Shown here piece by piece: positions 752 through 13,702 of a stretch of DNA of 13,741 nt. Every line of letters starts with the position of its first letter. Position 1 is the stretch's first letter. The notes below the pieces were generated by a model. That model had not been told where the DNA came from. It made no database searches and was given only the letters and a program-made list of their open reading frames with translations. The DNA is taken from NCBI GenBank assembly GCA_045105775.1, contig JBGCDW010000074.1:1-13741 (forward strand). Reading direction: 5' to 3'. Source of the DNA: Aureispira sp. (GTDB lineage Bacteria > Bacteroidota > Bacteroidia > Chitinophagales > Saprospiraceae). The position numbers and the translations under genes are program-made.

Positions 752-3700
752 TTACGATTTCTTAAACACAATTCCACCTGATTTAGAAACAGGAGCAACC
801 GCTTTTTGCTGCGCGCCTTGCTCAATTCCTTCTTCCAATGCTTGGTGAATACTTTGCAAATGATCAGAAAACTGAGACAATTGCGCCACTACCTGCACCA
901 ATGGATTATCTTTATTACCCTGCAACAGCTTATCCTTATTAAAAGCCGCTTTGATTGCCTTCCAACGAACAGCTTCTTCCTCTGTTAATGCACCAATCAA
1001 TTCTTTGAATTTGAGCATATTGGATTCTGCACTAGAGGTGAGTGTTTGCGACTCGCCCTCATAGTGTGCAATGAGCAAGGTTTGCAATTCTTTTTCATTG
1101 GTAATAGGCGTAAGCTTTTCTACCAACTTGTTCATATTTCGATAAGAACCCTGTAATTTAAAGGCAGGTTCTGTACGGAAAGCCTCTTCCATGGCTGCGG
1201 AGCGAATATACTCTAAGTTAACTTTGAGAATGGCATCTCTAATCACTAGCATACGCTCTACCAAGGCTACAAATTCATTCACTTCCTGACTGCTGTGATT
1301 GCCCTCCAATTCGGCACCATCGCGACTTCCTGTTTGAGCATATTGCACCACGGCATAAATATCCTTGGCTCCCTTAGTGGCTAGTTTTTGCAATATGGCA
1401 TTAGAAGTCAAGGAATTCTCAATATAACTCAACTCAAAAACATCTTTGGTATCTCCAATAATATCACCCAGATTGTAAATGTCAGAACGGTTGGCCAACA
1501 TGTCTGGAACTTGGAACTTGTCGCCACTTTCGGTATATGGATTACCAGCCATGACCACAGCTACTCGTTTTCCTCTCAAATCATAGGTCTTGGTTACCCC
1601 TTTGTAAATACCCTCAATCTTGCGCTGTCCATCGGTCAAAGAAATGAATTTCTGCAAAAACTCAGGATGACAGTGCTGAATATCATCCAAGTAAATCATG
1701 ATGTTATCACCCATTTCCAAGGCCAGGTTGAGTTTTTCCAGTTCCTTGGCAGCAGCAGCATTGCCCGCCTCGCTCGGATCGAGCGAAACGACATTGTGTC
1801 CTATAGCGGGGCCATTGATTTTCATAAAAATAAGTCCCAGACGATCTGCCACATACTCCATCAAGGTAGTTTTACCATAGCCAGGAGGCGAAATGAGCAA
1901 GAGCATTCCCATTCTATCCGTACGGGTATTATCACCAACAGTACCAATTTGTTTGGCCAAGTTGTCTCCAAAAATAGGCAAATACAATTGGTCAATTAAT
2001 TTGTTTCGCACAAAAGAACTCAATACTCTTGGCTTGAATTCCTCCAAACGCAATGCTTGTTTAAAGTCTTGTGTTAAGGCGCGTTTCATGGTAACAAATT
2101 GCTCATATTGGGCTACTGTTTTAGCTTGATAATAGCTCAATTTGTTCATAAAAGCATTGTAGTCCATTTGGTAAATACCACCAGACCCAATGACAGCGTG
2201 TGCCCCATGCAATCCCTTTATTTCTTGATTGGTTTTGACGTTAATAACATGGCTTTCTTGATAGTTTTGTGTAAGAATAACCACCACTGCTTCTTGCAAA
2301 TAAGAAGTATACTCCGTCAGCTTTTGCTGCTCAATAAAAGCACTCAACCATTTTTGGCACAACTCAAATTGTTGCTCCAATTGCCCTTCCAAACTTTTGA
2401 GTACAGCATTAAAAGATTCTTTGGCTTGTTGACGCTCCAAGTATTGCTTGAACTCTGTTTGCAAATCATGGGCACTGCCACTGACAATGAAATGGTTTTG
2501 TCTAGACCATTCATCAAATAAATAGCGAGCAGCAGTTGGTACCAAATGTTCGTCGAACAAAGAATATTGCTTCAAAAAATCGCGCAAACCTTCCTCTAAT
2601 TGTTCTAATAAAAAATCAAACTCCTTGGTTTGAGGAAAAACTTTACGAATCAATCCTGCACTTTTTAGCTGTTTGTCAAACGTAGTTTTATTTTCCTCCG
2701 TTATAAATTTCTGCCAATACAAAGTTGCCAAAGCTCTTGCTTTGCTCTCATACACCAACAAATCAATATACTCGTGCAAGTATAAGATAGATTCTAAGAA
2801 TTTGGCAGCATCCAAATCGTGGATACCTTTGCTGTATCCTTCCTCTTTGGTGGCTCGTTCATTGACCAATTGCTGCACATAAGGCAAGACCTCTTCCGAA
2901 GTCAATTTTTTTCTTTCTTCTTGCAATTGTAAGAACGCAATATAAGCCAAGTACTCCGCTCTATACACTTGGCTATTCTCAGAAATAAGAGCTTGCTCCC
3001 AGACCGCTTTTGTCTCTAAGAAATTAGGCTCTTCTACTTCCTCATAGAAACCTGTTCCAGTGAGGTGATAGTACATTTTTCCTTCCTTGAGTGTCATGGT
3101 CAAGCCCAATGCTTGCTTGTTGACAGAGAAGAAATGACGACCAAATTTAATGGCATTGCCATCCGCAGAGAACAAATCTTTTCTGTCCTTCAATTGGCGA
3201 ATGCTATCTTCTTGAATGGTTTTGAGACGTGTTTGTACATCATCTGCCTTGTTAGAATCGCCCAAATCTTGCAATTTTTGGATGATGTCTCTAACTTTTT
3301 CAATCATCAAATCTGCTGCAAAAAAGCCATTGATGTCGTCTATTTCCTTAAAGTTCTTGACGCGATTGGCAATACCTTTTAGGTTTCTTTCGGCAGCCGT
3401 TTGTAGGGCTGTGCTGCGCTTGTTGGTTGCCTCAATAATGGACAAGCGGCGCGATTCAAACGCATTGCTAATCGCCTCGCGTTTATCGGCAATTTTGACA
3501 ATAAACTCATCAAATTCAGCAAATTTGCTTTCCAACTCCTCTACCTGAATCATCATTTTGGTATAATACTCATCGGCCTTTTCTACGGTGTTGGCAATAT
3601 CCAAGTAGTTGATGAGTCCTTGATCTAGGAGTTTGGATTGGGCGGCAAATTCGGCTACTGCTTCTGCACCCGTCAAGTCGCGCAAGCGGCGTTTGATGGC

Positions 3701-5725
3701 TGCTTTGGCTTGGTTGAGTGTGGCAAAAATAGCCGTGATATTATCGATGATGCGTGTTGTTTGGGTGGCATCCTCAATTTTGAGATTGGAAACAATTTCG
3801 ATCAATAACTCCAACTCTTTCCCAATTTCATCAATGCGCTCCTCTAGCTTTTGACCTTGACGCGCTGTTTCTACGTCTTCAATATTGGCCTGGGCTTGGG
3901 CTACACGCTCCAAATAGGGCTGTAGAGCATTGGGCTGTAGCAAAAACTGCACACAAGATTGGGAGAGGTTGTTGCTAATGTCCATCGCTTCGGTCTCCAA
4001 TTCCTCAATCAAGGACAAATCTGTATAACGCAATGCTTTGAGAGAAATAATAGCCCCTCTAATTTTGCGCAATTCGGCCAAGTGCTGCACAAACTGATCC
4101 ACCTTGAGATAGGTGGTGCCTTTGATGACTCTGAACAAAGCCACGGCTTCCTTTTGCGTTTCGCGAATGGTTTCACGCGTGTTTTTTCGGATGTTCTGTA
4201 CCTTCTCAAACTCATCAATAGCCGTATTGGCTGATGCTCGAATGGCCGAAATAGGAGTGGATAAATTGTAGGCTTCCTCATTATCAATCCAATAATAAGA
4301 ATCTAAAATGACGGTTGCTCGTTTGTTCAAATCAAAATACAAATCATCATAACTGTCATCTTGTGCCAAGAGACTCAACAATTCTTGACACTCGGCCATA
4401 GCGCGCACTATGTCTTTATTACTAATTTTATAAATATAAGAATCAGCATGTTGAGAAGGGAGTACATTGCCTTTGATGTAAGGGGTTTGCCATACTTGTA
4501 CCAAGTGGTGTGAAGTCTTGGTGTCCTCGCTTCTGAAGTAACACAGTTCTCCATCAGGAAAAAGACTGTACCCATTACAAATAATAGGGGTGGTGACGGT
4601 TTGTTCAATAACATTGTAGGAGAGGAGTATATAGGCTCCATCTTCTGGGCTATGAAAAACATACAAATGATCTTCTCCATTGGGCGATTGAAGGTGCTGC
4701 TCAAACAGTTTGTTTTGTCCAGGTGTTTTGTCAAACATCTTAAAGTCACCTGTCTGTAAATAAAAGCCATTGGAAAAAATCAAGCCTTGTTCATTGGGCA
4801 GCAGTACCCCTGAGTGTGCTAGAGCATCGACACGCTGCACGGTTTGAAGTTTTACATTATACACAAAATACCTAAATTCTTCTTGATAAGGTTTGATGCG
4901 CAAAGCAATAAGGTTGCCCAAATCTGCATAGTTGACGGTGGCATCACTAACTTTCTGATTGGCGTGTTTGACCTCCTCTGCATAAATCCCTTTGCCTGTA
5001 TCGGTATTGTCTTCAATTTTTATGGTCAAATCTCCATCTACTGTTTCTACAAACACCTTATCTAAAATAGAGATGTGTGGATGTGGCCCTTGGCGGTACA
5101 TGTCCATACGAACGGATTGCCACTCAAATTCAAACTGATTGGGGTAACGATAGTTTTTATCACCAGGAGAGGAGTCGTAAATCAACTGGTTATCTTTGAT
5201 CTCCCATTTAAAGGTTTTTTGACCATTACCATCCTTAAACACCATATAAAAGAACGGCTCATTCTTATCACGGGCAAATTTTAGAAAATAGACTTCCTTG
5301 GAGTAACGATAAAGACTCTTGAAGTCTGCTTCAAATTTTTCACTCCCTTTGGGACGAATAAGGTCTAATCCAACTTCTTTGTAACTGTGGTCATCTTTAA
5401 ATTCATAGATGCTAAACACATCTTGCAGCTCAATGTTTTTGAGCCCCATTCTAATATTATAACCAAAAATACAATAGCGTCCAATAGAGAAAATATCTCT
5501 TGCAATACACTCGTGCTGGGTTTCAATACGTTGGTTGCTAATGAGTTTCATTTCAATAGAACCAAAAACCTCTTTTCGTGCTTGGTTGAGTTTTTCTAAA
5601 CGTCCATGTAAGTCATTGCCGTTTTTTTGCAGACGATTTTTAATAATCTCATAAGTACTTCCCTCTAATTGTTGGTTGTGCTCTGTTGTCTCTTCTGGAG
5701 TTGTTGTTGTTGTATCTTCAGCCAT
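752..5725 (-). CDS. Giant multidomain AAA+ ATPase (1657 aa). Beta-rich N-terminal region of about 470 aa, long alpha-helical/coiled-coil middle region (aa ~470-1250), and a single MoxR/AAA_5-like ATPase module (aa ~1260-1460) followed by a C-terminal helical tail
   Basis: Uninterrupted 4974-nt ORF. Walker A reads LLLISPPGYGKTTLMEY (P-loop codons at 1865..1882, aa 1282-1287). Walker B reads IMIYLDDIQH (~1672..1701). Sensor-1/helix-2-insert region VAVVMAGNPYTESGDKFQVPDMLANRSD resembles the MoxR 'ATQNP...LPEAQLDRF' block. The N-terminus is rich in aromatic residues and beta-like segments (YFLKF, FYMVFKDG, YILLSYNV, CYFRSED). The middle is E/K/Q/L-rich and helical. No SD sequence; A-rich leader. 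Confidence 0.85.
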   Translation of the reverse strand: MAEDTTTTTPEETTEHNQQLEGSTYEIIKNRLQKNGNDLHGRLEKLNQARKEVFGSIEMKLISNQRIETQHECIARDIFSIGRYCIFGYNIRMGLKNIELQDVFSIYEFKDDHSYKEVGLDLIRPKGSEKFEADFKSLYRYSKEVYFLKFARDKNEPFFYMVFKDGNGQKTFKWEIKDNQLIYDSSPGDKNYRYPNQFEFEWQSVRMDMYRQGPHPHISILDKVFVETVDGDLTIKIEDNTDTGKGIYAEEVKHANQKVSDATVNYADLGNLIALRIKPYQEEFRYFVYNVKLQTVQRVDALAHSGVLLPNEQGLIFSNGFYLQTGDFKMFDKTPGQNKLFEQHLQSPNGEDHLYVFHSPEDGAYILLSYNVIEQTVTTPIICNGYSLFPDGELCYFRSEDTKTSHHLVQVWQTPYIKGNVLPSQHADSYIYKISNKDIVRAMAECQELLSLLAQDDSYDDLYFDLNKRATVILDSYYWIDNEEAYNLSTPISAIRASANTAIDEFEKVQNIRKNTRETIRETQKEAVALFRVIKGTTYLKVDQFVQHLAELRKIRGAIISLKALRYTDLSLIEELETEAMDISNNLSQSCVQFLLQPNALQPYLERVAQAQANIEDVETARQGQKLEERIDEIGKELELLIEIVSNLKIEDATQTTRIIDNITAIFATLNQAKAAIKRRLRDLTGAEAVAEFAAQSKLLDQGLINYLDIANTVEKADEYYTKMMIQVEELESKFAEFDEFIVKIADKREAISNAFESRRLSIIEATNKRSTALQTAAERNLKGIANRVKNFKEIDDINGFFAADLMIEKVRDIIQKLQDLGDSNKADDVQTRLKTIQEDSIRQLKDRKDLFSADGNAIKFGRHFFSVNKQALGLTMTLKEGKMYYHLTGTGFYEEVEEPNFLETKAVWEQALISENSQVYRAEYLAYIAFLQLQEERKKLTSEEVLPYVQQLVNERATKEEGYSKGIHDLDAAKFLESILYLHEYIDLLVYESKARALATLYWQKFITEENKTTFDKQLKSAGLIRKVFPQTKEFDFLLEQLEEGLRDFLKQYSLFDEHLVPTAARYLFDEWSRQNHFIVSGSAHDLQTEFKQYLERQQAKESFNAVLKSLEGQLEQQFELCQKWLSAFIEQQKLTEYTSYLQEAVVVILTQNYQESHVINVKTNQEIKGLHGAHAVIGSGGIYQMDYNAFMNKLSYYQAKTVAQYEQFVTMKRALTQDFKQALRLEEFKPRVLSSFVRNKLIDQLYLPIFGDNLAKQIGTVGDNTRTDRMGMLLLISPPGYGKTTLMEYVADRLGLIFMKINGPAIGHNVVSLDPSEAGNAAAAKELEKLNLALEMGDNIMIYLDDIQHCHPEFLQKFISLTDGQRKIEGIYKGVTKTYDLRGKRVAVVMAGNPYTESGDKFQVPDMLANRSDIYNLGDIIGDTKDVFELSYIENSLTSNAILQKLATKGAKDIYAVVQYAQTGSRDGAELEGNHSSQEVNEFVALVERMLVIRDAILKVNLEYIRSAAMEEAFRTEPAFKLQGSYRNMNKLVEKLTPITNEKELQTLLIAHYEGESQTLTSSAESNMLKFKELIGALTEEEAVRWKAIKAAFNKDKLLQGNKDNPLVQVVAQLSQFSDHLQSIHQALEEGIEQGAQQKAVAPVSKSGGIVFKKS

Positions 5726-5782: not shown

Positions 5783-7606
5783 CTAAAATTTTTCGTTTAG
5801 TTGTGTTAGTTGTTTGGATAATTCTGACAATTGGTAGGTATCAACCAATTCTGTTATTTGTGGAAGAACGCTCTTTTGTATAAATTGTATTTCGTATCCT
5901 CCAAAACTACTTTCTTGCAAGTACGTCATGTATTTCTTTAAGAGTCGTGCCCCTTTTTCTTTTTGGTTGGTTTGGTAGAATTGTTTGATAATTTGCACCT
6001 GCTTGGCAACCATAACATTTATAGTCTTTGCAAAGTAGTTATACCAGTTGTTCTGTAGTTTCTTAGCTTTTTTGATTTCATTCTGCTCAATGAGTGTCTT
6101 TATAGTTTGGGTAAAACTCAAGGTAATTGAATAAAAAGTAGGAAAATCCTCTAATTCAATATCTTCAAAAACTGGCCACTTAAATTCTTGAATAAAAAAG
6201 CGATAGTTGATTAGGGCTTGCTCCTTGCTCAAGTTTTTATTATCTCTTTCTTTGTATTCAAATAATTGGTTGATCCCATATGTGTGAATATACTTTGATG
6301 CTCCAGTATTAGTCATAAAATTAGACCCAGATACTTGGTTTCCATAGCTTGGTGCAAATAGGATAGGCCGCGTCTTGTAATTAGATGCTAATATCGCTAA
6401 TAGAAGAATTTCAGAGCGTACTAGAGAGGTTTGTGGACAAATTAGCTTGGGAGCATCTGGATCGTAATGGCCCAGTACAAAGCTACGTGTCGAAGCTGTT
6501 TTGATACCCTTGCGCTTAGATGCTAATAATTTTATCAACATTTTGACAGGCCAGGCTTTTTTTTCTGTATTTTCTTCCAATAAAATATAATCGCCTTTGG
6601 GAGCTTGATAATGCTCTAAATCAAGTCCTATATTTAGGTATTTGTCTTTGTAATAAGATTGATCAGACAAATGCGCACCATAGTAATGTGCATTGAGCAA
6701 ACTTTCATTGACTATCAATACATCTTCCCGTATTTTTTTAGCTTGCTGCAAATACAACAGTGGATAAGTATCGTTATCACCGTATGTAAATAGAATGGCA
6801 TTTGGGGGACAACTCAATAAGCTATTTTTGCTAAAAGCTATGGTTGCTGGTGTATACAGTTCTTTGCCTTCAACTGTTGCCAATGCTTTTTCCTTAAACC
6901 CTAAGAAAGCTAGGCGCATACTTAGGGTTAGAATTTCATTGCAATATTTGGTATATATGCTTCCCACCACTGTTTTAAAATCAGGATCTAGTTCATTAAC
7001 TTTTTTGAAGCATTGGGCAGCTAGATTGCCATTATCAATCAAAGAATCTAGCCATTCAGGTGCTTGATTGATGAGGTGGTATTTGCCATAGTCTAAAATA
7101 TATTGAGCAGATTTAAAGGAATGTGCTCTTCCTAGAGAGTAGTAATCATCAGGACTACTTAAAGGATATTTTTTATAATAATCAATAGTTTGGACAGGCC
7201 AATTATTATCACCAAAAAAACGATTGATATTGTATTCATCCGTATGAAAATACTTGGTAGCAATAGGTCGTTTTTGGAAATGCTCCCGTTTGATTTTTAG
7301 CGGCATCGCTTCACCTTTGATGACCAATTCATCTACATAACCCTCTTTGGGCGACCAAATTAATTGCTTATTATCTGAATAAACCCAGTTTCTATCTTGA
7401 TAATGGCCAACAGTAATCCAAAAACCTTGGGTATCTTTTAGAACATTGAGTCGAGTCATTCGATCCAATTTTATTGAGCAAATCCCCTTTTTTACAACAT
7501 GTTCTACTACTTCATGATACAATGGAAAATCACGGGGCAGTTGTGCCCAGAGGGTACAAGATAAATAGCTAATTAATAAAGTGGTATAGAAAAGCTTTAA
7601 TAGCAT
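5783..7606 (-). CDS. Secreted or periplasmic protein of unknown function (607 aa) with an N-terminal signal peptide
   Basis: Long ORF lying between the flotillin gene and the ATPase gene with short gaps (68 nt upstream, 57 nt downstream). N-terminus MLLKLFYTTLLISYLSCTLWA|QLP has the n/h/c regions of a Sec signal peptide with an AxA-like LWA cleavage site. I recognise no catalytic motif with confidence (TYGDNDTYP and HYDPDAP are possible metal-binding patches). Same strand and spacing as its neighbours, so it is inferred to be co-transcribed. Confidence 0.8.
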   Translation of the reverse strand: MLLKLFYTTLLISYLSCTLWAQLPRDFPLYHEVVEHVVKKGICSIKLDRMTRLNVLKDTQGFWITVGHYQDRNWVYSDNKQLIWSPKEGYVDELVIKGEAMPLKIKREHFQKRPIATKYFHTDEYNINRFFGDNNWPVQTIDYYKKYPLSSPDDYYSLGRAHSFKSAQYILDYGKYHLINQAPEWLDSLIDNGNLAAQCFKKVNELDPDFKTVVGSIYTKYCNEILTLSMRLAFLGFKEKALATVEGKELYTPATIAFSKNSLLSCPPNAILFTYGDNDTYPLLYLQQAKKIREDVLIVNESLLNAHYYGAHLSDQSYYKDKYLNIGLDLEHYQAPKGDYILLEENTEKKAWPVKMLIKLLASKRKGIKTASTRSFVLGHYDPDAPKLICPQTSLVRSEILLLAILASNYKTRPILFAPSYGNQVSGSNFMTNTGASKYIHTYGINQLFEYKERDNKNLSKEQALINYRFFIQEFKWPVFEDIELEDFPTFYSITLSFTQTIKTLIEQNEIKKAKKLQNNWYNYFAKTINVMVAKQVQIIKQFYQTNQKEKGARLLKKYMTYLQESSFGGYEIQFIQKSVLPQITELVDTYQLSELSKQLTQLNEKF

Positions 7607-7674: not shown

Positions 7675-10329
7675 TTAGAGTACTTTATCGGCAGCATCAT
7701 TGCCCATACCTAAGCTTTTGACCGTTTCCATCAAGTTTTGAATGACTCCTTTATCGTCGCCTACAGCTTTGTTGTACAACTGCATCAATAGGGCAGACAA
7801 GGTTACATTTTTGATGGTTTCAGTACCAATATCATACTGGCTTACAAAACCTCCAATACGCGATAGAATATTATCATCACCATCACCTAGCAAGGCACCT
7901 TTTACTACCTGCAATTCTTCACTGCTTTCCATTAACTTATCAATGGTTTTACCACGCTTAATAGCATTGATAATATTGTTGAAGAATTCTGTTTCACCGC
8001 CTACAATGTCAATATTAGCATTGTTGAAGGCCCCAGCTAGGATACGAGCGTGAGACTCTGCAATACCCAATTCTGCTTGGATTTCTGCAATTCTGATTTC
8101 TCTTTGCTGCTCTAGGCGCAATTTGAACTCTTCGTGCTCTTTGCCTACACCATCCAATAGCTTCATGGCATTGGCTTTGGCTTCAATACCTTTGGCTTCT
8201 GAAATCAATTTTTCACCAATAGTTTTGGCTTCGGCTAGTCCATGCTGCTCTAGTGTTTGAGCTTCGGCCAAACCTTTTTGTTCTTTGACCTTAGCCTCTG
8301 CTAGACCTTGTTGTTCGGTTACTTGCGCTTGAGCCAAACCTTCTTTTTCTAGGCGTAGAGCCTCGGCCAAACCTTGCTGCTCAGTTACTTTGGCTTCGGC
8401 CAAACCTTGCTCTTCAATAATTTTGGCTTCAATCAAACCTTGCTGTTCTTTAACTTTAGCAGCAGCTAGACCTTGTTGTTCGGTTACTTGCGCTTGAGCC
8501 AAACCTTCTTTTTCTAGGCGTAGAGCTTTTGCCAAGCCTTGTTGCTCCGTAACTTTGGCTTCGGCCAAACCTTGTTGCTCGGTTATTTGAGCTTTGGTTA
8601 AGCCTTTCTGCTCGATTACTTTGGCTTCGGCCAAGCCTTGCTGCTCTACAATTTTGGCTTCAGCCAGACCTTGCTGCTCGGTTACTTTGGCCGCTGCCAA
8701 TCCTTTCTTTTCCGTAGTTTGAGCCTCGGCCAAACCTTGCTGCTCAATAACTTTGGCTTTGGCCAAACCCTGACGCTCAATTATTTCTGCCTCTGTATTA
8801 CCTTTTTCTTTGATAATATCAACATCCACCATGCCTCTAGCACGTTCGGCTTCGGCTTTCATTTCAATGGCTTTGGCTTCAGCTTCAGCACGTTTTTGTA
8901 AAATATTGGCTTGTGTTATGCCCTCCATTTCTTTGGCTTCGGCTTTGGCTTTCATCACATCTGCTTCGGCCAAACCAACGGTTGCTTCTTCTGCCGCCAA
9001 TGCCTCTGCATTGATTTTACGTGCTTCGGCATCTTTTTGAGTAGCAGCTTTTTTAGCATCGGCCTCAATCACAATTTGCTGTGCTTTTACTTCTGCGGCT
9101 AGTTTATCTGATTCTGCACGACGTGTTTGAGTGATTTTTTGCATTTCAGCTTCTTTAGAAGCTTCAATTTCCGCTACTTTTTTGGCACGTTCGGCAGCAG
9201 CCAATTGCTTAACATCTTCAATTTTTTGATCTTCCTCTACGGTCTTTTTTTCCTCGGCTTTACGCTCTTTGATAATAACTTGGATGTCGCGTTTTTTCTC
9301 TTCTAGGATTTGCTCTTTTTCAATTTCTGCCAATCCTACCGTACGTTCTTTGTCTGCAATTGCTTTTTGTTCCTCTGTTTCTACGCGTTGAATTTGAACT
9401 TTTTCTAATTCTTCTTTATTGAGTCGAGCAAGGATGATTTGACGTTCTTTGTCTTCTTCTGCTTCCCCCAGCTTTTGTTCGGATTGCTTGCGAACCAGTT
9501 CAGTTTGCAAATCTTTTTCAATGACGACTTGTTTGGCCGCATTTTCCTGTTCACTAGTCAATTCTCGAATTTCACGTTTTTGTTTTTGTTCTTCTTCGAT
9601 TTGCTGTTTTTCTAAGCGAATGATGTTTTTTCTAGCCTCTACATCTTGCTCTTTGATGGTTTGTTCTCGATTGCGTCGAATTTGATTGGTGCGTTCTTGC
9701 TCTACAGACGTAAGCTCTTCAATCTTCTTGATACCTTGTGCATCTAGGATATTCTTTTGATCTAAATCAGATAAAGAGGTTTGCTCTAAGTAGTCAATAG
9801 CACAGTCATCGAGTTCATAACCATTGAGGTCTGTACCAATTGTTTTTAGAATTTCTTTCTTGAATTCCTCTCTTTGTGTATACAAGTTGATGAAATCAAA
9901 GCCTTTACCCACGGTTTTGAGTGCTTCGGAGAATTTGGCATCAAACAGATTGTTTAAGGTTTCTTGTTGAGAGGCACGTTGGCAACCGATGGTTTGTGCT
10001 ACTTCCTTAACAGAAGCCTCATCCTTGTTGATCCGCACAAAGAAGACCACCTTGATGTCTGCACGCATGTTGTCTTTACAAATCAATCCTTCTGACCCAG
10101 TACGATGTACCTCAATGGTTTTGAGAGAGATGTCCATTTCTTCTACCGTGTGCATGATCGGGAATACAAACAAACTGCCGTCTAAGACAACTTTGGTACC
10201 ACCCGCACCTGTACGTACCAAGGCTTTACCCTGTGGAGATTTACGCAGGGATTTTAATAAGACTAATATACCCCCTGTAGTGATAACAAGGAGGATAGCC
10301 AAAAATATATACAAAACAGATTCACCCAT
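7675..10329 (-). CDS. Flotillin-family SPFH/band-7 protein (YqiK/FloT-like), lengthened to 884 aa by a tandem 11-residue-repeat stalk
   Basis: N-terminal TM helix (VLYIFLAILLVITTGGILVLL). The SPFH core (aa ~30-215; KVVLDGSLFVFPIMHTVEEMDISLKTIEV...ADIKVVFFVRI...) has the typical flotillin beta-alpha pattern. A long E/K/Q-rich coiled coil follows. Next come about 17 hendecad repeats E-Q-Q-G-L-A-E-A-K-V-T. The C-terminus is flotillin-like (GAFNNANIDIVGGETEFF..., LLGDGDDNIL...GG). Confidence 0.88.
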   Translation of the reverse strand: MGESVLYIFLAILLVITTGGILVLLKSLRKSPQGKALVRTGAGGTKVVLDGSLFVFPIMHTVEEMDISLKTIEVHRTGSEGLICKDNMRADIKVVFFVRINKDEASVKEVAQTIGCQRASQQETLNNLFDAKFSEALKTVGKGFDFINLYTQREEFKKEILKTIGTDLNGYELDDCAIDYLEQTSLSDLDQKNILDAQGIKKIEELTSVEQERTNQIRRNREQTIKEQDVEARKNIIRLEKQQIEEEQKQKREIRELTSEQENAAKQVVIEKDLQTELVRKQSEQKLGEAEEDKERQIILARLNKEELEKVQIQRVETEEQKAIADKERTVGLAEIEKEQILEEKKRDIQVIIKERKAEEKKTVEEDQKIEDVKQLAAAERAKKVAEIEASKEAEMQKITQTRRAESDKLAAEVKAQQIVIEADAKKAATQKDAEARKINAEALAAEEATVGLAEADVMKAKAEAKEMEGITQANILQKRAEAEAKAIEMKAEAERARGMVDVDIIKEKGNTEAEIIERQGLAKAKVIEQQGLAEAQTTEKKGLAAAKVTEQQGLAEAKIVEQQGLAEAKVIEQKGLTKAQITEQQGLAEAKVTEQQGLAKALRLEKEGLAQAQVTEQQGLAAAKVKEQQGLIEAKIIEEQGLAEAKVTEQQGLAEALRLEKEGLAQAQVTEQQGLAEAKVKEQKGLAEAQTLEQHGLAEAKTIGEKLISEAKGIEAKANAMKLLDGVGKEHEEFKLRLEQQREIRIAEIQAELGIAESHARILAGAFNNANIDIVGGETEFFNNIINAIKRGKTIDKLMESSEELQVVKGALLGDGDDNILSRIGGFVSQYDIGTETIKNVTLSALLMQLYNKAVGDDKGVIQNLMETVKSLGMGNDAADKVL
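8180..8790 (-). repeat. Tandem 33-nt (11-codon) repeat array, about 17-18 units, inside the flotillin CDS. It contains a 165-bp higher-order duplication (8300..8361 is identical to 8465..8526)
   Basis: The protein reads E[QK][QK]GL[AT][EK]A[KQ][VI][TVK] repeated head to tail. At DNA level, the 62-bp string gctagaccttgttgttcggttacttgcgcttgagccaaaccttctttttctaggcgtagagc occurs twice, exactly 165 bp (5 units) apart. The flanking units are also near-identical. Confidence 0.85.
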
Positions 10330-10597
10330 GATTAATTGTTTTTAGTTAGTTGAGTAATAAGGCTTTGGCACAAAGGGTAATGCCAAAATATGAAATTGTT
10401 AGATTGAAAATTATTTTTTACAACTATTAACGCTTATCCCGAATAAAGTTGTATGGTTCGCTGTAGCATTTTTTCCTTTATCTGCATCATCGAAAGACGT
10501 ACAGCCTCTCCGAGGATGCACGTTTTCGCTTCTTCGCTAAAGATAAAAATCAAAACAGCTCTCTTTTCATAAATTCTATTCGTGATAACCGTTATTG

Positions 10598-11335
10598 TTA
10601 ATGCTGTGTCCAGCGTTGGACTAGGTATGTTTTTTTCTCTTCGTCTTCTTGTATGATAATCACTTCTGTACCTTTCTCTATGAGTTCACCTGTATCAGAA
10701 CGAACTCTTAAAGTAATAATAGATTCGTCAATAGTGGCTTTGAGCTGGCCCGTTTCCTCTCCTTTGATACTAGTGAGCAAAGTGCCTATTTTGCCATTAA
10801 TAACCAATGGTTTGGCAAAGGTATTTCCATGTTTAAACAAAGGAACCAAAGGCATGGTCAAGAATTTGGCAGCAAAAAGACTCGCCAATACAAGAGGCCC
10901 AAAGAGCAAAGCTGCCGTTCCCAAAGAATTGGTTGGATTGATCCAACTACTCTCATGGTTGCAGTAGACGGATAAAGACCATAAGGATAAAATAAACATG
11001 GACAATAAGACCATAAAAGGAACACGCCCTAAATTAAAAAAGCGTAAACCACCAAGTAAAATAGAACCAGCAGTAATTCCTGTATCGGCATTTGCATCTA
11101 CATCCGCATCCGCATCAACGTCTACATCGGCATCCACGTCTATATCAACATCCACATCAACGTCTACGTCGGCATCCACATCTATATCAAAGCTTTTTAG
11201 GCCTACCACACCTAAAATAACGGTTAGCCAGTAAAAACAGATGATTCCCAATAAAATGGTTAAAACAAAGTTGGGGGTGGATAAGGCTGCAGTGAGTAAC
11301 TCTTTCATAGGTTCATATTGTAATAAGTATAACAA
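10598..11335 (-). CDS. YqiJ/NfeD-like inner-membrane protein: N-terminal multi-TM domain plus C-terminal NfeD-type OB-fold beta domain, carrying an internal (Asp-Val)n dipeptide-repeat tract
   Basis: Several hydrophobic helices (FVLTILLGIICFYWLTVILGVVGL, ILLGGLRFFNLGRVPFMVLLSMFILSLWSLSV, AALLFGPLVLASLFAAKFLTMPLVPLF). The C-terminal ~70 aa (GKIGTLLTSIKGEETGQLKATIDESIITLRVRSDTGELIEKGTEVIIIQEDEEKKTYLVQRW) have the short all-beta character of NfeD/YqiJ C-terminal domains. The gene lies directly upstream of a flotillin gene, which is the conserved yqiJ-yqiK / nfeD-flotillin arrangement. Confidence 0.72.
   Translation of the reverse strand: MLYLLQYEPMKELLTAALSTPNFVLTILLGIICFYWLTVILGVVGLKSFDIDVDADVDVDVDVDIDVDADVDVDADADVDANADTGITAGSILLGGLRFFNLGRVPFMVLLSMFILSLWSLSVYCNHESSWINPTNSLGTAALLFGPLVLASLFAAKFLTMPLVPLFKHGNTFAKPLVINGKIGTLLTSIKGEETGQLKATIDESIITLRVRSDTGELIEKGTEVIIIQEDEEKKTYLVQRWTQH
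11086..11190 (-). repeat. Imperfect hexanucleotide (GAYRTN)n tandem repeat of about 17 units, encoding DIDVDADVDVDVDVDIDVDADVDVDADADVDANAD in the YqiJ-like protein
   Basis: Plus strand reads catccgcatccgcatcaacgtctacatcggcatccacgtctatatcaacatccacatcaacgtctacgtcggcatccacatctatatc. The encoded protein has a strict alternation of Asp with Val/Ala/Ile over 35 residues, located after the first TM helix. Confidence 0.85.
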
Positions 11336-13162: not shown

Positions 13163-13702
13163 TTATAAATTTAGAGCTTTTACGATTGCATCAAGTCGGT
13201 CGCTAATCTTGCCAATGTTTTCATTGATTTTTGCTCTAGCTTTTTCATTGACCCTTTTGCCAGGTTTTGAGCTGTCAGAGCCTTGTGCTACGGCCTCTTT
13301 GAGTGCGTTTAGTTGTGTTTGTAGTTCATCGATTTGTGCTTGCTCTTCCTCATCGATTACGCCGTCTTTTTTAGCTTCTTCGATGAGCTTGCTTAAAGCC
13401 GTTTCATATTTGGCAATATTGGCGTTCAATGTATCTTGAGGAGCTTTATCTTTGACTTTATCCATCTTGTCAATGCCCTCTCTCATTTGACCCATTTGGG
13501 TGCTTCTTTTAGCTTTATTGGCTTCAAGTGTAGCTGTATCTTGGTCCTCTCCTGTAGTTTCTGTTTCATCATCTGATACACTAGAAGCGTTAGGGTTGTA
13601 TAAGCGTAGAATTTCGCCATTTTTGGCAGCATAATCAGTATCGGCAAAAATTTGTTCCAAAGAACCTTTATCTTCTCCTTCTACTTTACCTTCTAAGGAC
13701 AT
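13163..13702 (-). CDS. Acidic coiled-coil protein of unknown function (179 aa as annotated; may extend N-terminally beyond the window end)
   Basis: ORF with a Met start at 13702. The 39 nt from that Met to the window end are also open in frame, so the true start may lie outside the window. The sequence is strongly acidic and helical (EEEQAQIDELQTQLNALKEAVAQG). It shares the motif G-[VF]-[IV]-D-x-[ED]-E-Q-x-Q-[IL]-D-x-[LM]-Q-[TN]-x-[LI]-N with the N-terminus of the downstream peptidase-domain protein. Confidence 0.65.
   Translation of the reverse strand: MSLEGKVEGEDKGSLEQIFADTDYAAKNGEILRLYNPNASSVSDDETETTGEDQDTATLEANKAKRSTQMGQMREGIDKMDKVKDKAPQDTLNANIAKYETALSKLIEEAKKDGVIDEEEQAQIDELQTQLNALKEAVAQGSDSSKPGKRVNEKARAKINENIGKISDRLDAIVKALNL

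Follow-up and report, generated by a model that had tools for sequence, protein, structure and literature searches.

The window that we have analysed is a whole stretch of 13,741 nucleotides of an Aureispira genome (Saprospiraceae; assembly GCA_045105775.1, contig JBGCDW010000074.1). Its central gene, on the minus strand, is an uninterrupted open reading frame (ORF) which codes for a protein of the flotillin family with 884 amino acids. Inside this gene there is a tandem array of 33-bp units, each of them coding for 11 residues, which is the subject of this report. A gene for a YqiJ/NfeD-like membrane protein is found upstream and one for a giant ATPase downstream. The coordinates of all features are given in Table 1.

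The protein has an SPFH domain: Pfam detects Band_7 (PF01145) with 54.1 bits, the cut-off being 23.6 (2.5e-14). A hydrophobic helix precedes this domain, with the basic stretch KSLRKSPQGK directly after it, which by the positive-inside rule predicts a cytoplasmic location for the remaining chain. BLASTP aligns residues 7-438 with residues 11-433 of Escherichia coli YqiK, annotated as an inner-membrane protein of the flotillin family (30% identity, E = 2e-47). Both the membrane anchor and the SPFH domain are covered by the alignment, together with the first ~225 residues of the long helix which follows. A Foldseek search with an AlphaFold2 (AF2) model finds the cages of prohibitin, flotillin (9BQ2, 9L3G), stomatin, HflK/C, erlin and QmcA-YbbJ, with E values from 2e-9 to 1e-6. 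The homologues from Aureispira and Saprospiraceae are full-length, and their sources name them 'flotillin family protein' or 'SPFH domain-containing protein'. Since searches of the PDB by sequence or profile gave nothing significant, the assignment rests on the YqiK alignment and on the fold search: the full protein finds by sequence only spurious Noc matches, and a profile of 24 family members has a single marginal match (QmcA, E = 0.005). The protein does not reach the threshold of the FloT equivalog NF058507 (35.8 bits, cut-off 700), and the match is limited to the EA-rich residues 478-569, against profile positions 313-395. The Pfam domain Flot (PF15975) is absent from its matches in a scan at E <= 0.01. 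A look-up of the exact 884-aa product gave no record elsewhere. From these comparisons we assign the protein to a separate subfamily of long YqiK-type flotillins.

The array is made of 19 units in frame. The canonical ones (units 1-17, positions 8209-8769) have the consensus GLAEAKVTEQQ; units 0 and 18, at the array ends, are degenerate. A first-pass annotation, made from the sequence alone, had described about 17 exact hendecad units at 8180-8790 in an 884-aa flotillin. The number and limits were essentially correct, and the nature of the protein is borne out by its Band_7 domain, the YqiK alignment, the YqiJ-like neighbour and the fold search. Tandem Repeats Finder reports 33-bp arrays at 8257-8769, and a search for ungapped repeats yields 14 copies in register, spaced by exactly 33 bp. 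When the protein is compared with itself, the identity is 0.56-0.60 at lags of 11, 22 and 33 residues and at most 0.14 at all other lags. An exact period of 11 residues, 19 units in frame and a segment which is predicted to be helical characterise it as a hendecad array.

Five positions of the unit are strongly conserved: G1, L2 and A5 are found in all 17 canonical units, E9 in 16 and A3 in 15 of them. When the units of three genomes are taken together, L2 and A5 are present in 49 of 49 and G1 in 47. When the unit is drawn on an 11/3 helical wheel, its conserved residues fall into two stripes separated by about 160 degrees, one with G1, A5, E9 and L2 (0-98 degrees), the other with A3 and V7 (196-229 degrees). 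The surface positions 4, 6, 8, 10 and 11 are polar and semi-conserved. In the DNA the units are only ~65% identical to one another. Identical residues in pairs of units are encoded by different codons in 51% of the cases, and the identity of unit pairs at codon positions 1, 2 and 3 is 0.66, 0.83 and 0.50. This divergence of codons at conserved residues indicates that most units are old and under purifying selection. Neither do we find the features of a hypermutable, slippage-prone repeat: the units, of 33 bp each, are too different for that, with only two exact repeats of at least 25 bp (62 and 26 bp). With regard to contingency repeats of this kind we also note the predicted cytoplasmic location of the protein.

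Two further matches in this region are of a different nature. An ORF of 87 aa with a TTG start is found inside the array on the plus strand (8638-8901); the codon structure of the repeat most likely accounts for it, and it is then not a gene. A match of the array with NCBIfam CsgB (curli), with E = 4.5e-4, was rejected as compositional: the array is predicted to be helical and is rich in E, K, A and Q.

Table 1. Position of the features described in the text; amino acid (aa) numbers are those of the flotillin
Feature	Position	Strand	Evidence
DUF3686 + DUF7902 + AAA ATPase, 1657 aa, soluble, downstream	752-5725	minus	Pfam
YqiK-type flotillin (SPFH) gene	7675-10329	minus	uninterrupted ORF, 884 aa and stop
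C-terminal helical domain, aa 779-884	7678..7995	minus	helices in both models, pLDDT up to 91
Extended segment ANIDIVGG, aa 771-778, candidate inter-subunit beta-strand	7996..8019	minus	non-helical in both models
Cap-like helix, CC2 equivalent, 41 residues, aa 730-770	8020..8142	minus	helix 89-129 in fragment model
LLDGVG turn ending the wall helix, aa 724-729	8143..8160	minus	non-helical in fragment model (residues 83-88)
Array of 19 hendecad units, 33 bp each and in frame, aa 510-718	8176-8802	minus	Tandem Repeats Finder, repeat search, in-frame parsing
141-bp block, copy 1 (units 12-15 region)	8269-8409	minus	127/141 identical to copy 2; Tandem Repeats Finder period 165
62-bp exact core, copy 1	8300-8361	minus	partner 8465-8526
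141-bp block, copy 2 (units 7-10 region)	8434-8574	minus	127/141 (90%) identical to copy 1
62-bp exact core, copy 2	8465-8526	minus	partner 8300-8361
Proximal non-repetitive wall helix, aa ~197-509	8803..9741	minus	low-confidence AF2 helix; aligns with YqiK to aa 438
SPFH / Band 7 domain, aa 31-213	9691..10239	minus	Pfam PF01145, pLDDT ~80, Foldseek
N-terminal membrane helix, aa 1-29	10243..10329	minus	hydropathy scan; AF2 helix 2-27
YqiJ/NfeD-like multi-pass membrane protein, upstream partner	10598-11335	minus	YqiJ_N, transmembrane scan, gene order

The position of the array in the protein was studied with two AF2 models. In the full-length monomer residues 197-770 are helical, and the SPFH part has a predicted local distance difference test (pLDDT) of ~80. 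The second model, of the fragment 642-884, is based on 22 aligned sequences and has a mean pLDDT of 73. It shows a single unbroken helix from residue 643 to 723, through units 12-18, with pLDDT 69-91. After it come a turn, a cap-like helix, an extended segment and C-terminal helices. With moderate confidence the fragment thus has the order of flotillin and other SPFH cages, namely wall helix, cap helix, strand and C-terminus (PMC11260169), which makes the array the distal part of the wall helix. The first-pass annotation had also assigned it to the helix that forms the wall of the cage, in agreement with this model. The motif LDGVG.EHEEF is conserved in the family consensus. Its residues H732, E733 and E734 are invariant in our homologue alignment (A2), as it is also the case for I773, G777 and G778 in the segment ANIDIVGG, which would be the equivalent of the flotillin beta-strand. 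In the non-repetitive part of the wall no hydrophobic periodicity is prominent, neither 3.5 nor 3.67: the exact hendecad is found only in the distal array.

The relatives that we have compared are of species level, with 81-89% nucleotide identity. The best 120 homologues have 697-774 aa, with a mode of 708-709 aa. They have the same module at the same site, in variable number: about 3-5 units in the forms of 708-709 aa, one more in those of 720 aa, 8 in P0001 and P0002 (763 aa, 87-88% identical) and 9-10 in P0004 (774 aa). A scan of species-representative genomes found two metagenome-assembled genomes (MAGs) of Aureispira from separate studies, L001 and L002. Both have an orthologue of 873 aa with 18 units and an intact frame, so that the array in the window is one unit longer. 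Among the closest relatives, 84-89% identical outside the array, we find 4, 8, 18 and 19 units. The variation in gene length which the first-pass annotation suggested looking for is therefore present between species-level relatives, in steps of 11 residues. It had also taken ~500 aa as the usual size, which is true of canonical flotillins; however the relevant baseline is ~708 aa, with 3-5 units.

The steps are exact. We have measured in 112 homologues the distance from the pre-array motif A-x-x-G-L-A-E-A to the invariant HEEF after the array. In 107 of them it is 96, 107, 118, 129, 140, 151, 162, 173, 272 or 283 residues, a single class modulo 11. The other five are offset from this series by exactly 7 residues.

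When 1.84 billion representatives were searched, 468 clusters had E <= 1e-30, and no cluster of the best 150 exceeds 825 aa. The longer clusters are expanded at the array site, with repeats of 11, 22 or 44 residues; those of 22 and 44 residues are super-repeats found in other lineages (P0137, P0132). In a metagenome scan we found two further loci only, both with 709-aa forms. A protein search with the array by itself gave 10 matches, all of them C-terminal fragments of the flotillin family with few units, and no other giant array. E. coli YqiK has one unit, KKGLAEAEAQR, at the corresponding site, just before the cap region. Since YqiK has one unit and most Saprospiraceae have 3-5, sequence comparison indicates that the GLAEAKVTEQQ-type module is ancestral and that the array site is a general point of expansion, of which the Aureispira clade is the extreme. 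The wall helix of this clade is probably the longest seen in the protein family.

The array has a second level of repetition. The 62-bp core is found twice, 165 bp apart, and the identity ends exactly at 62 bp, as had been reported in the first-pass annotation. Each copy is part of a 141-bp block, which appears in Tandem Repeats Finder as a 165-bp period (8269-8574, 1.9 copies, 90% matches). Only one other exact direct repeat of at least 25 bp is found in the 13.7-kb window, a pair of 26 bp (8358-8383 / 8721-8746) with a spacing of 363 bp, that is 11 units. The 62-bp core had been interpreted as the trace of a very recent five-unit duplication, by unequal recombination or slippage. The offset of 165 bp and the 62 identical bases stand, but the block has ~4.3 units and is no clean copy of five. 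Specific pairing is limited to units 8-9 with 13-14 (29/33 and 33/33), whereas units 7 and 12 match at 30/33, no better than units 1 and 12.

We have considered whether a fresh duplication of five units in this lineage could nevertheless explain the core. The 165-bp period with 90% matches speaks for it, units 10 and 15 are mutual best matches (26/33) and the gene has one unit more than L001 and L002. On the other hand, units 6 and 11 are unrelated (20/33), and the 14 nucleotide differences between the two blocks are all found outside the core (P = 0.0025 under a uniform spread). A codon-by-codon comparison of the copies shows 9 differing codons which are synonymous, most of them within the block. 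Furthermore, L001 has the same two-unit block, ALRLEKE-QAQVTEQQ, also in two copies: they are spaced by 6 units (198 bp), and by 5 units (165 bp) in the window. The edges of the arrays of the window and L001 are collinear, while their interior blocks are reordered. The copies of the two-unit block match at 62/66 and 61/66 within a genome and at 57-60/66 between genomes, which is the pattern of concerted evolution. It points to a duplication of greater age, followed by recent gene conversion or by unequal exchange on repeated occasions, and not to a single fresh event of 165 bp, which we consider doubtful; the original interpretation was too simple. Gene conversion may have produced the identity of the 62-bp core, or else the block was duplicated again independently. 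Replication slippage is unlikely because the units are so divergent. Homologous unequal exchange has no other substrates of at least 25 bp than the 62-bp and 26-bp exact repeats, which predict insertions and deletions of 5 and 11 units. The 26-bp pair, in particular, is a possible substrate for a deletion or duplication of 11 units.

The flotillin studied here can be compared with several known systems. E. coli YqiK/YqiJ shares with it the anchor, the SPFH domain and the early part of the helix, a yqiJ-like gene upstream and a GLAEA-type unit before the cap. The differences are also clear: YqiK has 553 aa and one unit, against 884 aa and 17-19 units. No alignment with YqiK is obtained for the cap and C-terminal domain (LDGVG-EHEEF ... 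IDIVGGE), and a gene for a DUF3686 AAA ATPase is added here downstream.

Flotillin itself is attached to the membrane by lipidation and a hairpin, not by a transmembrane helix. The cage of human flotillin-1/2 (9BQ2, 9L3G) matches our model over 461 columns, with a Foldseek probability of 1.0 and E = 5e-9. In both, the SPFH domain is followed by a long wall helix, then by a cap helix, a strand and a C-terminal part (PMC11260169). The human wall is rich in A/G-E patterns, has no heptads and forms a right-handed barrel (PMC11260169). The first-pass annotation had attributed to typical flotillins a heptad coiled coil, which is contradicted by this structure. It was right in expecting a packing unlike that of a left-handed coiled coil; however, non-heptad, right-handed packing is the norm of the family and no departure from it, and a period of 11 residues agrees with this norm. 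The wall of human flotillin has 186 aa and is non-repetitive, whereas the wall proposed here has ~527 aa, 209 of them in exact hendecads.

HflK/C-FtsH and QmcA-YbbJ also share the SPFH fold with our protein, and their SPFH gene is paired with an NfeD-type protein or linked to an AAA+ gene. The wall helices of HflK/C and QmcA are far shorter, within 44-189 aa. FtsH is anchored in the membrane, while the DUF3686 ATPase has no hydrophobic segment and is linked to the flotillin by gene order.

Hendecad (11/3) repeats also occur in right-handed coiled coils, such as tetrabrachion-type stalks, which form bundles with a hydrophobic core in positions a/d/e/h. They have in common with our array an exact period of 11 residues and insertions of 11 (and 7) which preserve the phase. 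They differ from it in their core: the array has two opposite stripes of small residues (G/A/L and A/V), the rest being charged or polar. Such a pattern would suit a sheet with a single layer of helices better than a bundle.

All these features lead us to propose, as the probable interpretation, that the protein is a long-form YqiK-type flotillin in which the wall helix has been lengthened by the hendecad array. From the N-terminus, a membrane anchor and the SPFH domain would be followed by a very long wall helix (CC1), which a turn separates from a cap helix; a beta-strand segment and the C-terminal domain would come last. The array would form the end of the wall helix away from the membrane. 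In such a protein two opposite stripes would suit a helix that has a packing partner on either side, in a barrel of one layer like the flotillin wall. A unit of 11 residues would correspond to three helical turns, so that a change of a whole unit would modify the length by ~1.65 nm without rotation of the cap with respect to the SPFH base. The cap thus stays in register when complete units are gained or lost: the rule of 11n (rarely +7) is the evolutionary trace of an angular register kept between base and cap. A right-handed supercoil or tilt of the helices is expected from the drift of +20 degrees per unit, calculated for a helix with 3.6 residues per turn, and from the flotillin wall, a right-handed barrel without heptads (PMC11260169). 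As to its origin, one Aureispira clade would have raised the ancestral module to 18-19 copies through tandem duplication, together with unequal recombination or gene conversion between units in the DNA.

The size of the wall can be estimated. If residues 197-723 are all wall, it has 527 residues, with a contour length of ~79 nm, and 209 of these residues belong to the array. The wall would have 351 residues in the relatives of 708 aa and ~244 in YqiK; with 186 in flotillin, ours would be ~2.8 times as long. The known SPFH wall helices have 44-189 aa, and it has been proposed that the length of the wall sets the size of the complex (PMC11260169). A published regression gives the number of subunits as 0.1782 x CC1 length + 10.22 (PMC12624060). 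For the 186 aa of flotillin it gives 43 subunits, 44 being observed. Extrapolated far outside its fitted range, it gives ~104 subunits for our protein and ~73 for the relatives of 708 aa, about 2 per unit. Repeat number therefore probably sets the length of the wall and, by this correlation, would also set the number of subunits. If the protein forms a cage and residues 197-723 are all wall, the number of units would alter both the height of the cage and its number of subunits.

Several points weigh against this interpretation. In the full-length model the helical region has a pLDDT of only 45-60, with breaks at residues 306-319 and 580-600. The second break falls inside the array, and the helix may fold back as a hairpin instead of forming one straight wall. 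A profile of the C-terminal half matches Flotillin-2 in the PDB without significance (E = 9.2), and Foldseek with the C-terminal fragment model gave no match. The assembly into a cage is predicted from models of the monomer. A conical cage cannot simply be stretched 2.8-fold, and the regression is used far past its range. Finally, the variation in array length could be selectively neutral, a question which we discuss below together with the neighbouring genes.

The order of the YqiJ-like gene and the flotillin is that of E. coli yqiJ-yqiK, and the YqiJ-like gene is kept in the related loci L001-L011. Its match with YqiJ_N has 21.1 bits, slightly under the cut-off of 23. The gene contains a coding tandem repeat of its own (11084-11190, minus strand, periods of 18, 24 and 42 bp), which encodes an acidic run of D-V/D-A/D-I dipeptides (DIDVDADVDVDVDVDIDVDADVDVDADADVDANAD) after the first membrane helix. 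A second, small Band_7 gene of 183-186 aa is found between the NfeD-like gene and the flotillin in L012 (7359-7919) and L002 (10001-10552). It is absent in L001 and in the window, which has a spacer of 268 bp in this position (10330-10597).

On the other side, the ATPase is found 3' of the flotillin in every related locus which extends far enough, among them L001 (8275-13251) and L012 (12266-17239), and also in the distant L015 (2428-7644); NfeD-like gene, flotillin and ATPase keep one order in all of these. It has no hydrophobic segment in our scan. Between the window and L001 the identity of the ATPase is 96% and that of the flotillin 89%. A literature search did not find any paper containing 'DUF3686', nor any which combines 'SPFH' and 'hendecad'.

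Between flotillin and ATPase there is a fast-evolving gene of ~607 aa (orf607; 5783-7606, minus strand), with an N-terminus like that of a signal peptide or lipoprotein and 71% identity to its L001 orthologue. The relatives have 0-3 copies of it: L002 has three tandem paralogues (13330-18937), and a homologue was not detected in L005, L007 and L009. The orthologue in L012 has the Pfam domain TMEM260_2. At the other end of the window, an ORF of 179 aa (13163-13702, minus strand) has only weak matches of the coiled-coil type (YmfL-like regulator, 4HB_MCP, JetC/LmuB segments). A defence island was also considered and rejected: PADLOC models match neither the flotillin, the NfeD-like gene nor orf607, and the ATPase has only a marginal mad8 match.

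Among other explanations of the array, the array may be helical and in phase while its length is neutral: a distal wall which tolerates insertions of three turns would let the number of units drift by recombination. The spread of unit numbers among relatives is indeed broad and has no visible link with gene context, as forms of 763, 873 and 884 aa are found whether or not the small Band_7 gene is there, next to one to three copies of orf607; other lineages have had separate expansions. However, drift does not account easily for the strong purifying selection on five of the 11 positions in every unit, nor for the maintenance of 18-19 units in three genomes which share only 81-89% nucleotide identity. 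The published correlation of CC1 length with stoichiometry (PMC12624060) also argues for a role of length. We consider a neutral length unlikely.

The array could also be a projecting stalk or a ladder of docking sites for the DUF3686 ATPase or the YqiJ-like partner, in which the number of units would set the valency. The conserved linkage to a giant soluble AAA ATPase would be in agreement with such a role, and so would the polar, semi-conserved surface positions and the break of the monomer model inside the array. But the array lies between conserved helical flanks and is followed by the conserved turn of the cap, hence it is internal to a helix and not a terminal appendage. A flexible ladder would allow other lengths, whereas the strict phase of 11n (or +7) suits a continuous packed helix. 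Besides, the ATPase is 96% conserved while the organisation of the array varies. Such a ladder appears very improbable.

Least of all can we believe that the long array, or the block spaced by 165 bp, comes from a mis-assembly of short reads: although the window and all its close relatives are metagenome assemblies, the exact product has no other record and in L003 a 10-N scaffold gap falls exactly at the start of the array, which makes that array uninformative, this gap is explained by low coverage (at 3.8x, L003 shows five gaps of this kind), arrays of 18 units with the frame intact come from two independent MAGs, the units are only ~65% identical, and the copies of the block differ at 14 of 141 positions, where an assembler would have produced identical ones, and sit between unique units, so that reads or k-mers longer than 62 nt would resolve them.

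For SPFH cages, such as those of flotillin, prohibitin, stomatin, erlin and HflK/C, the current proposal is that size and copy number are set by the length of the wall helix. This wall-length rule comes from a regression on few solved complexes, with walls of 44-189 residues (PMC12624060, PMC11260169). A variation in the length of SPFH walls will not surprise a specialist as such. The notable part is its exact quantisation, the extreme length and the existence of a natural series. If length is neutral, the array would hardly be more than a neat example of how repeats evolve in a structural protein.

The conserved pairing with the giant DUF3686 AAA ATPase makes the latter a candidate client of the cage. 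One may go further and suppose that this subfamily builds exceptionally large cytoplasmic cages, sized in quanta of 11 residues, which house or scaffold the ATPase of ~1,660 aa; we regard this as decidedly unlikely. If true, cage and ATPase would be a counterpart of HflK/C-FtsH for soluble cargo, and the Aureispira clade with 18-19 units would make the largest known SPFH assembly, with ~100 subunits and a wall helix of ~80 nm.

What is new here is a YqiK-type flotillin whose wall helix is extended by an amplified ancestral module of three turns. The rule of 11n (rarely +7) gives direct evolutionary evidence for an angular register between base and cap in the wall helix. The relatives form a natural series of similar proteins, with walls which differ by exact steps of 11 residues, from 3 to 19 units. 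This series makes the proposal that wall length sets the size of the cage directly testable, well outside the range in which it was fitted.

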